NCBI GenBank assembly: GCA_016181765.1
Contig: JACOYR010000005.1
Span: 18,733-82,732, forward strand
Length of the DNA stretch: 64,000 bases
Direction: 5' to 3'
Source: Parcubacteria group bacterium
GTDB lineage: Bacteria; Patescibacteriota; Patescibacteriia; UBA2169
Below, one piece after another: positions 19,861-58,604 of the stretch (the first letter of the stretch is position 1; every line of letters starts with the position of its first letter). The notes below the pieces were generated by a model that made no database searches, was not told the DNA's origin, and saw only the letters and a list, made by a program, of their open reading frames with translations. Both the position numbers and the translations under genes were made by a program.

Positions 19861-19933
19861 GCCCGCGTCTTCCTTTCAAATTTCTGCTTAACCTCGGCGA
19901 GTACGCCTCGGCCCAAGCAGAAATTTGTGAAGA
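19861..19933 (-). repeat. structured tRNA-leader repeat, copy 1 (between tRNA-Ile and tRNA-Pro)
   Basis: gcccgcgtcttcctttcAAATTTCTGCTTaacc...cccAAGCAGAAATTTgtgaaga; long hairpin with inner tetraloop hairpin. Confidence 0.6.
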
Positions 19934-19946
19934 CACATGTATTTTC

Positions 19947-20023
19947 TGGTGGGCGATCGAGGAATCGAACCTCGGACCTCGTCATTATCAGTGACGCGCT
20001 CTAACCATCTGAGCTAATCGCCC
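19947..20023 (-). tRNA. tRNA-Ile (anticodon GAU), CCA encoded
   Basis: acceptor GGGCGAU/AUCGCCC, anticodon loop CUGAUAA, T-loop UUCGAUU. Confidence 0.8.
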
Positions 20024-20024
20024 G

Positions 20025-20264
20025 TGGTGCCGCGGGGGTGAGTCGTCATCACCCCGTTAATACGGGGGCCAGGCGCTTCCCGTCCGCCATATGGCAGACG
20101 GTACTCCCAAAAGGGATAGTCTCTACACCTTTCCGCCTCATCGGCGGACTTGGCTCGGGATTGCCCGCATGGGGTTTCCCCGAATTCACCTGGTTTGCTG
20201 TAGCCTATTACTAGGCTAAGGCCCAAAGATTTAGGCCTTCGCTCTACCGCTGAGCTACCGCGGC
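20025..20264 (-). tRNA. intron-containing tRNA gene (about 240 nt); canonical 5' exon (acceptor GCCGCGG, D-arm UAGCUCAGCGGUAGAGC) and 3' end CCGCGGC-A-CCA; identity uncertain (anticodon possibly GAA/Phe if splice after U33)
   Basis: perfect 7-bp acceptor complementarity between ends, canonical D-arm, encoded CCA; interior has group I P1-like hairpin with U.G at putative splice site and Azoarcus-like core motifs; T-arm appears non-canonical (9-nt loop). Confidence 0.6.
20080..20232 (-). ncRNA. putative group I (IC3-like) self-splicing intron inside tRNA; boundaries approximate
   Basis: motifs GGUGAAUUCGGGGAAACCCC, CCGAGCCAAGUCCGCCGAUGAGGCGGAAAGGUGUAGAGACUA closely resemble Azoarcus pre-tRNA-Ile intron (GCCGAGCCAAGC...GCCGAUGAAGGUGUAGAGACUA); P1 hairpin AAGGCCU|AAAUCUUUGGGCCUU. 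Confidence 0.5.
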
Positions 20265-20292
20265 ACGCGGTAATTATCAATTCTTTTCTTTC

Positions 20293-20369
20293 TGGTGGAC
20301 GATGGAGGATTTGAACCTCCGACCTCGTCGATGTCAACGACGCGCTCTAACCAACTGAGCTAATCGTCC
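20293..20369 (-). tRNA. tRNA-Val (anticodon GAC), CCA encoded
   Basis: acceptor GGACGAU/AUCGUCC, anticodon loop UUGACAU, T-loop UUCAAAU. Confidence 0.8.
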
Positions 20370-20426: not shown

Positions 20427-20503
20427 GCCCGCCTCTTCCTCTCAAATTTTTTCTTAACTTCCCTCGCGTTCGCTCGGTCAGCCCAAGAAAAAATTTGTGA
20501 AGA
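20427..20503 (-). repeat. structured tRNA-leader repeat, copy 2 (16S-tRNA-Val spacer)
   Basis: gcccgcctcttcctctcAAATTTTTTCTTaact...cccAAGAAAAAATTTgtgaaga; stem changes compensatory relative to copy 1. Confidence 0.6.
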
Positions 20504-20514
20504 ATCACCCAACC

Positions 20515-20778: not shown

Positions 20779-22186
<1,408 letters not shown>

Positions 22187-22404
22187 AACTATATCATTGC
22201 TCAAGTTTACCCCCGCGAAAGCGGGGGTTAGTGGCGCTTACCAAGAGTTTTGGGAAACTCTGGTAAACATGAGTTGTCAAAGAGATAAAAAATGCCTGCC
22301 CAAGAGGCAGACACACGACAAGATACAGTCTCGTTTTGTTGATAGTATTGAATATATCCTATCGTGTGTCTCCTGAACTGAATTGATTACTGCTAACTAC
22401 TCGT

Positions 22405-58508: not shown

Positions 58509-58595
58509 GTGGTGCCGGAGGGGAGACTTGAACTCCCACCCTGCAAGCAGGACAGCGCTCTGAACGCTGCGTGTCTACCAGTTTCACCACTCCGG
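58509..58595 (-). tRNA. tRNA-Leu (anticodon CAG), class II long variable arm, CCA encoded
   Basis: acceptor GCCGGAG/CUCCGGC, anticodon loop UUCAGAG, variable arm UCCUGCUUGCAGGGU, T-loop UUCAAGU. Confidence 0.75.
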
Positions 58596-58604
58596 CGCGT
58601 CGTT

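Follow-up and report, generated by a model that had tools for sequence, protein, structure and literature searches.

Group I introns in the tRNA genes of Patescibacteria have been described by Nakagawa et al. (mSystems 2026, PMC13011429), with lengths of 184-894 bp and a classification as IA, none of them falling in IC. Table 1 of that study lists group I introns at position 33/34 in tRNA-Met and, for the Doudnabacteria assembly GCA_016699995.1, in a tRNA-Phe(GAA). Related Patescibacterial tRNA introns self-splice in vitro, and a change of the terminal G to C blocked exon ligation. According to rows of Table S2 of the same paper, Patescibacterial genomes mostly have one tRNA-Phe gene and occasionally two. 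Here we analyzed an element of 240 nt at 20264..20025 on the minus strand of a 64,000-nt stretch of DNA (the window) from a metagenome-assembled genome (MAG) of Parcubacteria (Patescibacteria). A preliminary description had seen in it a tRNA gene interrupted by an exceptionally small group I-like intron or, failing that, a decaying gene. Comparison with intact relatives favours decay: the locus is most probably the remnant of a Patescibacterial tRNA-Phe(GAA) gene with a group I intron after U33, inactivated by a deletion of 64-65 nt, and hence a pseudogene. What is new here is a broken copy of the published family and not a new kind of intron.

Intact relatives and the intron core

A metagenome scan using the lineage-specific P1 sequence yielded two contigs, Ga0210057_1046643 (L247) and Ga0210057_1000232 (L248), both with complete genes whose 32-nt 5' exon and P1 are identical to those of the window. 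Single-gap global alignment revealed identities of 225/238 (94.5%) to L247 and 214/240 (89.2%) to L248, the last 21 nt being identical, and the only large difference is one gap of 65 and 64 nt, respectively. The gene order of L248 (16S, Val, Phe, Ile, Pro) matches that of the window. In intron mode, ARAGORN identifies both relatives as tRNA-Phe(gaa) and places the intron, 240 nt long in L247 and 230 nt in L248, at sequence position 33; this corresponds to the canonical 33/34 because the D-loop is one base short, and the joined exons form a canonical 75-nt tRNA-Phe. The interruption of the tRNA directly after U33 by a group I intron, as proposed from the window alone, is therefore seen at the same site in intact genes, and a site after U33, once taken to be without precedent, is the published 33/34 (PMC13011429, Table 1). 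The window copy shares the homologous 5' exon with the intron after U33 and the homologous core, whereas the joining of exons into a canonical tRNA-Phe, possible in L247 and L248, is impossible here.

A scan of the genome collection with the core motif gave further relatives. Among the matches listed are intact tRNA-Phe introns from Taylorbacteria (L183), Ryanbacteria (L165), Saccharibacteria (L167) and others (L188, L229 and L159), together with tRNA-Asn introns of near-identical core, for instance L149. Seven genes are called tRNA-Phe(gaa) by ARAGORN in intron mode (L247, L248, L159, L183, L188, L229 and the published gene). Their introns measure 211-240 nt, and the last intron base is a G right before GAA, the boundary being ambiguous by one G in two of them. 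Read from the sequences, the start of the 3' exon pairs with the guide next to P1 and covaries with it: the P10-type pairs are GAAGA/UCUU(U/C) in the window lineage, L183 and L229, and GAAAA(C)/(G)UUUUC in L188, L159 and L167. The window copy received no ARAGORN call in any mode, intron mode included.

The ends of the element form a perfect 7-bp acceptor stem (GCCGCGG/CCGCGGC) followed by A73-CCA, with the D-arm GCUC-AGCGGUA-GAGC behind the 5' strand, just as first described, so that the window copy has the acceptor stem, discriminator base and D-arm of a functional tRNA. All sequences quoted in the preliminary description are indeed present at 20025-20264, on the minus strand. The 5' exon (20233..20264, minus strand) comprises the acceptor strand GCCGCGG, U8 and A9, the D-arm, G26, the anticodon-stem 5' strand AAGGC, C32 and U33, with 32 of 32 nt equal to L247 and L248. 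At the other end, the acceptor 3' strand CCGCGGC, the discriminator A73 and the encoded CCA (20025..20035, minus strand) are identical in L247 and L248 and pair with 20264..20258. With a folding energy of -116.7 kcal/mol, the 240-nt RNA is more stable than shuffled sequences (-86.8 +/- 5.0; z = -6.0), and 0/200 shuffles fold as well.

A permissive scan with RF00028 (Intron_gpI) gave 48.7 bits, with E-values of 1.9e-11 locally and 2.4e-9 for the whole window, and aligned the full model from 20242 to 20020. The check for a group I core thus supported the first reading, with a score just under the gathering score of 50 bits, and a default Rfam scan reports none. The two intact genes of L247 and L248 score 76.3 and 85.3 bits, and the intact relatives 58.6-94.5. 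In this alignment the ribozyme core extends nearly to the CCA end and covers what had been taken for the 3' exon. Default ARAGORN and Rfam at the gathering score made no call on the window; because intact relatives were missed as well, this silence is not evidence against a tRNA or an intron. Default annotation overlooks the intron-bearing tRNA genes of this phylum, and tRNA-based estimates of MAG completeness therefore need intron-aware searches.

All core elements lie on the minus strand. P1 (20218..20239) pairs the exon bases AAGGCCU and the intron bases AA with the guide UUGGGCCUU, in agreement with the Rfam model, the minimum free energy (MFE) fold and L247/L248. Written AAGGCCU|AAAUCUUUGGGCCUU, it holds a single U.G pair at U33, as the preliminary description had it, which marks the 5' splice site between 20233 and 20232; a counterpart is present in other tRNA-Phe introns. 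P2, AGCCUA-GUAA-UAGGCU (20202..20217), is found in the Rfam alignment and the MFE fold, and one of its pairs varies between G-C, G.U and A-U across the window, L247 and L248 with pairing retained. The P3 5' strand CCAGGUG (20187..20193) pairs with 20075..20069 in the same alignment and fold. The P4-P5-P6 domain (UCGGG GAAA CCCC..GGG CAAU CCCGA; GCC AA GUCCGCC GAUGA GGCGG AAA GGU) occupies 20127..20183 in the Rfam alignment, with compensatory changes against L247 in P4 (G-C vs U-A) and P6 (U-A vs C-G). It is followed by J6/7 and the P7 5' strand, GUAGAGACUA (20117..20126 in the same alignment), whose pairing partner is missing.

Next come two hairpins of the MFE fold, P7.1 (UCCC-UUUU-GGGA, 20105..20116), conserved in L247, L248, L183 and L188, and P7.2 (CCGUCUGCC-AUAU-GGCGGACGG, 20080..20101), a palindrome of 9 bp in which the changes of L248 keep the stem paired. 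In the Rfam alignment they lie within a 39-nt insertion that separates the P7 5' strand (GACUA) from the P3 3' strand. The second hairpin had been described as an 8-bp P9-like stem; by length and position it is P7.2. Two such hairpins between the P7 5' and P3 3' strands reportedly define subgroup IA in the scheme of Michel and Westhof (1990). With extra hairpins at 20116..20105 and 20101..20080, the window core is of the IA type and not IC3, as judged from this arrangement.

The joining sequence GAAG (20079..20076) is conserved intron sequence and precedes the P3 3' strand CGCCUGG (20069..20075). The Rfam alignment places the P3 3' strand at GCGCCUGG (20076..20069), and it assigns CCCCGUAUUAACGGGG to P8 and UGAUGA to J8/7. 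Complementarity at the four variable P3 pairs is seen in 29/29 relatives, in 15 distinct sequence combinations. P8 forms the hairpin CCCCGU-AUUA-ACGGGG (20052..20067; Rfam alignment and MFE fold). The remnant of J8/7, UGAUGA (20046..20051), holds the last intron bases before the deletion and aligns with UGAUGA|UAUAGUCC of L247/L248 and with the Rfam J8/7 consensus. The conserved core helices P3, P4-P6 and P8 are thus all found, on the grounds of Rfam alignment, covariation and compensatory changes. These positions bear on the 3' half of the earlier model, which had put the terminal G at 20080, started the 3' exon at GAAGCGCC and taken CGCCUGG for the 3' strand of the anticodon stem: GCGCCUGG is the P3 3' strand in 29/29 relatives, followed by P8 and J8/7, and CGCCUGG belongs to it. 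GAAG and the motif GAAGCGCC before the P3 3' strand are also found in tRNA-Asn introns, where a Phe anticodon is impossible. The assignment to tRNA-Phe(GAA) stands on the intact relatives; the GAA chosen for it (20079-20077) is conserved intron sequence, and the true anticodon is deleted.

The deletion and its consequences

In the window copy, 65 nt compared with L247, or 64 nt compared with L248, are missing between 20045 and 20046 (minus strand; single-gap global alignments). The deleted stretch, as present in L247, is UAUAGUCCAAUCCCUGGAGCAAUCCAGGUUACUCACAGGUUCG|GAAGAGCCUUGCGUCGGGUGUU, and the junction reads GGGGTGATGA|CGACTCACC, with the junction 26-mer GGGGTGATGACGACTCACCCCCGCGG. After tgatga the window runs straight into CGACTCACCC CCGCGGCACCA, which resembles a T-loop tail, the T-stem 3' strand and the acceptor strand, and this direct transition suggests an internal deletion. 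What remains of the 3' exon next to the junction are the last five T-loop bases CGACU and the T-stem 3' strand CACCC (20036..20045, minus strand), as in the tRNA-Phe 3' exon of L247/L248. A MAFFT alignment that placed the 3' tail of the window against P9 and the 3' strand of P7 (P7') was replaced by the single-gap global alignment.

The intron has lost the P7 3' strand (UAGUC), P9, the terminal G and the 3' splice site. The Rfam model in L247 puts J8/7, P7' (AUAGUC) and P9 (CCUGG-AGCAAU-CCAGG) exactly inside the stretch that the window lacks. The guanosine-binding site needs both strands of P7, and only GACUA is kept, without a UAGUC partner: of the 233 fetched introns that share the P7 5' motif, 227 carry AUAGUC downstream, and no such partner for the window P7 5' strand was found within 900 nt. 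Alternative P7 pairings examined by hand (GAG/CUC and GGGAGU/ACUCACC) do not restore a canonical G-binding helix, and the relatives made them unnecessary. The relatives end in ...GGUUCG|GAAGAG, with the terminal G and a 3' exon for P10, and this segment is absent from the window.

The tRNA has lost positions 34-55. With them went the GAA anticodon, the 3' strand of the anticodon stem and the variable loop, and from the T-arm the 5' strand of the stem and two bases of the loop. There is no anticodon arm, positions 34-43 being deleted and GCCUU being present only as guide sequence. Nor is there a T-arm with a 7-nt T-Psi-C loop: only CGACU and CACCC are left of it, and a substitute hairpin has the 9-nt loop AUGACGACU. 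This false loop, formerly read as the T-loop of an over-long 3' exon, is AUGA of J8/7 fused to CGACU at the deletion junction. By chance, the P8/J8-7 sequence GGGGUGAUGA is similar to the T-stem 5' strand and loop start that were lost (GGGUGUU), and by pairing with CACCC it gives rise to the apparent T-arm. The breakpoints share only this imperfect 'GGGTGnT' similarity of about 7 bases, which may have promoted the deletion. The stems that remain are all intact, with compensatory differences from the relatives in P2, P4 and P6, which suggests that the deletion is recent.

In group I splicing, a guanosine bound in P7 attacks the 5' splice site, and the terminal G of the intron then occupies the same site for ligation. 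In the intact gene, P1 and P10 would align the exons on the guide sequence, guanosine in P7 would cleave after U33, and the terminal G would replace it in P7 while the exons are joined into the 75-nt tRNA-Phe. In the window copy, a single deletion of 64-65 nt between 20046 and 20045 has removed P7', P9, the terminal G, the 3' splice site and tRNA positions 34-55. With the P7 3' strand gone there is no guanosine-binding site; with the terminal G and the start of the 3' exon gone there is nothing to ligate; and with positions 34-55 gone even perfect excision would yield no tRNA, hence a pseudogene that is probably inactive. We predict that the L247 allele self-splices with guanosine and that the window allele does not. 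The record-small intron of about 150-165 nt is accordingly a by-product of the 65-nt deletion, the introns of intact relatives measuring 211-240 nt. Apart from the missing 65 nt, this supposed novelty in size and site is an ordinary Patescibacterial tRNA-Phe intron of a kind published in 2026.

Status of the locus and alternative explanations

Several points weigh against a pseudogene in the living genome. The catalytic loss is deduced from the missing elements. A single tRNA-Phe gene is usual in these bacteria and the locus is syntenic with that of L248, so a real deletion requires an unseen second copy. The search for another tRNA-Phe suggested by the preliminary description was run within the 64-kb window and found none, nor does the window contain a copy of the lost exon or a further group I intron. 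No independent assembly with the junction came from protein look-ups or the metagenome scan. In the look-ups, a spurious open reading frame (ORF) of 107 aa across the element and the trmD ORF had no exact-protein record, and two larger neighbouring proteins were absent from the cluster collection. One of three must hold: a second gene outside the window, a variant captured in the MAG, or a wrong assembly. We infer that the deletion is present in the living genome and that a working tRNA-Phe gene lies elsewhere. It is unlikely that the deletion is foreign to the organism's only allele and stems from an error in the assembly or consensus, from a chimeric read or from a minority variant, with the real gene intact as in L247/L248. 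That explanation gains from the indispensability of tRNA-Phe, mostly encoded by one gene in Patescibacteria, from the synteny with the L248 gene and from a remainder that shows no decay. In addition, the region is strain-variable, the contigs built from short reads of eight samples that carry the neighbouring 184-aa gene all break inside tRNA-Ile, and the metagenome scan gave no second copy of the deleted allele. However, the imperfect similarity of about 7 bases at the breakpoints is far too short for a false join in a k-mer assembler; junction reads must therefore have existed, which makes an assembly error unlikely. A loss of 65 nt is also atypical of sequencing error, and spacers of 1 nt to tRNA-Ile and 28 nt to tRNA-Val, against 146 and 749 in L248, indicate that the locus has been remodelled otherwise too. 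When the syntenic tRNA-Phe locus of a streamlined genome holds a broken copy, this points to another tRNA-Phe gene, to heterogeneity among strains or to a problem with the assembly.

It is very improbable that the deletion is real and the locus the sole one, which would leave the organism with no conventional tRNA-Phe gene. If that were true, tRNA-Phe would have to be obtained otherwise, for example from a host or by trans-splicing with a separate piece bearing P7', the terminal G and the 3' exon. A related proposal, to which we give little credence, is that the truncated RNA persists in a new function, for example as a stable tRNA-like or ribozyme-derived RNA that RNase P releases from the rRNA-tRNA transcript, or as the 5' portion of a split gene whose 3' portion is encoded separately and joined in trans. 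The perfect acceptor stem with CCA, the minihelix-like GGGUG/CACCC stack, the intact helices, the location in a transcribed rRNA-tRNA cluster and a window with no other tRNA-Phe would all fit it. Yet this is a single instance whose nearest relatives carry an ordinary intact gene, an intact remainder is expected after a recent deletion, the retained 21-nt 3' tail fits an internal deletion and not a split gene, and no partner sequence was found within the window. Least credible is the model first drawn for the element, an intron of about 153 nt (20232..20080) with terminal G20080 and an 87-nt tRNA-Phe(GAA) with a long variable region as product. ARAGORN accepts the hypothetical product as tRNA-Phe(gaa), and GAAG at 20079-20076 could pair with the guide UCUUU as P10. 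Such an intron, however, would be without the 3' strands of P3 and P7, GCGCCUGG being the P3 3' strand in 29/29 relatives, and GAAGCGCC is found in tRNA-Asn introns too. The ARAGORN cloverleaf contains an A.G mismatch in the anticodon stem, 17 unpaired variable nt and a 9-nt loop without T-Psi-C, intron mode makes no call on the window gene, and the true 3' splice site and exon of the relatives are deleted here. We therefore retain the deleted tRNA-Phe(GAA) gene as the best explanation of the locus.

Two further candidates were rejected. A class II tRNA with P8 as its long variable arm fails as the P8 3' strand overlaps the only possible T-stem, and P3 and P8 are intron elements. A tmRNA-like or permuted RNA found no support, such families reaching only E ~3 in Rfam.

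The rRNA-tRNA cluster and comparison with known systems

The element sits in a transcribed rRNA-tRNA cluster on the minus strand. It is preceded by the 16S rRNA (22189..20780) and tRNA-Val(GAC) (20369..20293) and followed after one spacer base by tRNA-Ile(GAU) (20023..19947), with tRNA-Pro(UGG) last. With spacers, the order is 16S, Val, 28 nt, Phe remnant, 1 nt, Ile, Pro in the window; 16S, Val, 749 nt, Phe, 146 nt, Ile, Pro in L248; and 16S, Ile, 31 nt, Phe, 771 nt, Val, Pro in L247. Downstream of tRNA-Pro the three sequences are unrelated, so the cluster lies at a synteny break. The tRNAs follow the 16S gene and are themselves followed by convergent protein genes, and the window has no 23S gene. 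Outside the cluster, ARAGORN calls a tRNA-Leu(CAG) at 58510-58596, where the Rfam tRNA model is silent at the gathering score or E <= 0.01.

The regions of tRNA-Ile(GAU) (19943-20023) and tRNA-Val(GAC) (20289-20369) share 85% identity over 81 nt, the 3' flank included. They look like recent paralogues and could serve as substrates for recombination inside the cluster. A conserved spacer module repeated between the 16S and the tRNAs (19908-19933 and 20436-20504), a direct repeat of 88% identity, also has a 20-nt inverted repeat around an AAATTT-rich sequence; it is found after tRNA-Phe in L248 too and may be a processing stem of the precursor transcript. In both contigs an ORF of about 230 aa (228 and 232 aa) adjoins the intact tRNA-Phe, at L247:2145-2916 (+) and L248:7106-7855 (-). 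Pfam gives only sub-threshold helix-turn-helix matches for the two, and by eye both contain a putative LAGLIDADG-like motif (LYLGEGSK / LYWGEGHK). Neither blastn nor tblastx detected any trace of them in the window. The rearranged state of the tRNA-Phe locus could be due to a free-standing endonuclease.

The window 16S (20780-22189) has 1410 nt against a model of 1533 positions, with shortened helices as is usual in Patescibacteria. Its 3' half (20822-21364) is 99.4-99.6% identical to L247:1-1392. Two elements that the window lacks are present near the 3' end of the L247 16S, namely an insertion of 71 nt and, at L247 604-1392, a group I intron of about 785 nt that scores 75.6 bits in Rfam; the presence of a 16S intron thus differs between very close relatives. 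The three related loci indicate that the 16S-tRNA cluster is often rearranged and may interest students of intron and endonuclease dynamics in these bacteria.

The preliminary description had likened the core to the IC3 intron of Azoarcus tRNA-Ile(CAU), which shares GAGCCAAG...GAAGGUGUAGAGACUA with the window. The Azoarcus intron is inserted at 36/37 and, to our knowledge, has no hairpins between P7 and P3'. The motif GAGCCAAG...GAAGGUGUAGAGACUA is widespread, with at least 120 matches in each of the viral and genome contig collections. The likeness to IC3 gives way to the IA arrangement with P7.1 and P7.2, and the published survey has no Patescibacterial tRNA intron in IC (PMC13011429).

The Patescibacterial tRNA-Asn(GUU) as well as tRNA-Asp(GUC) introns (IA, 35/36, self-splicing in vitro; PMC13011429) have a core very similar to that of the window, and the tRNA-Asn intron L149 is 82.6% identical to it over element positions 69-197. 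They share the same P7.1 and P7.2, GAAGCGCC before P3' and the J8/7 sequence UGAUGAUAUAGUCC. Unlike the window copy, they reside in other host tRNAs at site 35/36, use another guide sequence and are intact.

The tRNA-Phe(GAA) gene of Doudnabacteria has the same tRNA, the same insertion after U33 and the same layout as the window, with matching 5' exon, P1, P4, P6 and P7 5' strand. The design of P1 is the same (..CCU|gaaucuucgggcc against ..CCU|aaaucuuugggcc), as are P4 (aaucccgagccaag) and the J6/7-P7 motif (aaggtgtagagacta). Between P7 and P3' the Doudnabacteria intron has one longer hairpin, whereas the window, L247, L248, L183 and L188 have two short ones. After J8/7, the published gene reads ...gatgatatagtcc aaaatgacgcag|GAAGAGCGTC...GTCAGTTCAATTCTGACC CGGGGCA (PMC13011429, Table S3). 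In contrast to the window, it is complete, with the P7' sequence gatatagtcc, the terminal G, a 3' exon starting GAAGAGCGTC... and an intron of 211 nt. L247 and L248, each with an adjoining ORF of about 230 aa and longer spacers, likewise keep the 64-65 nt that the window copy has lost.

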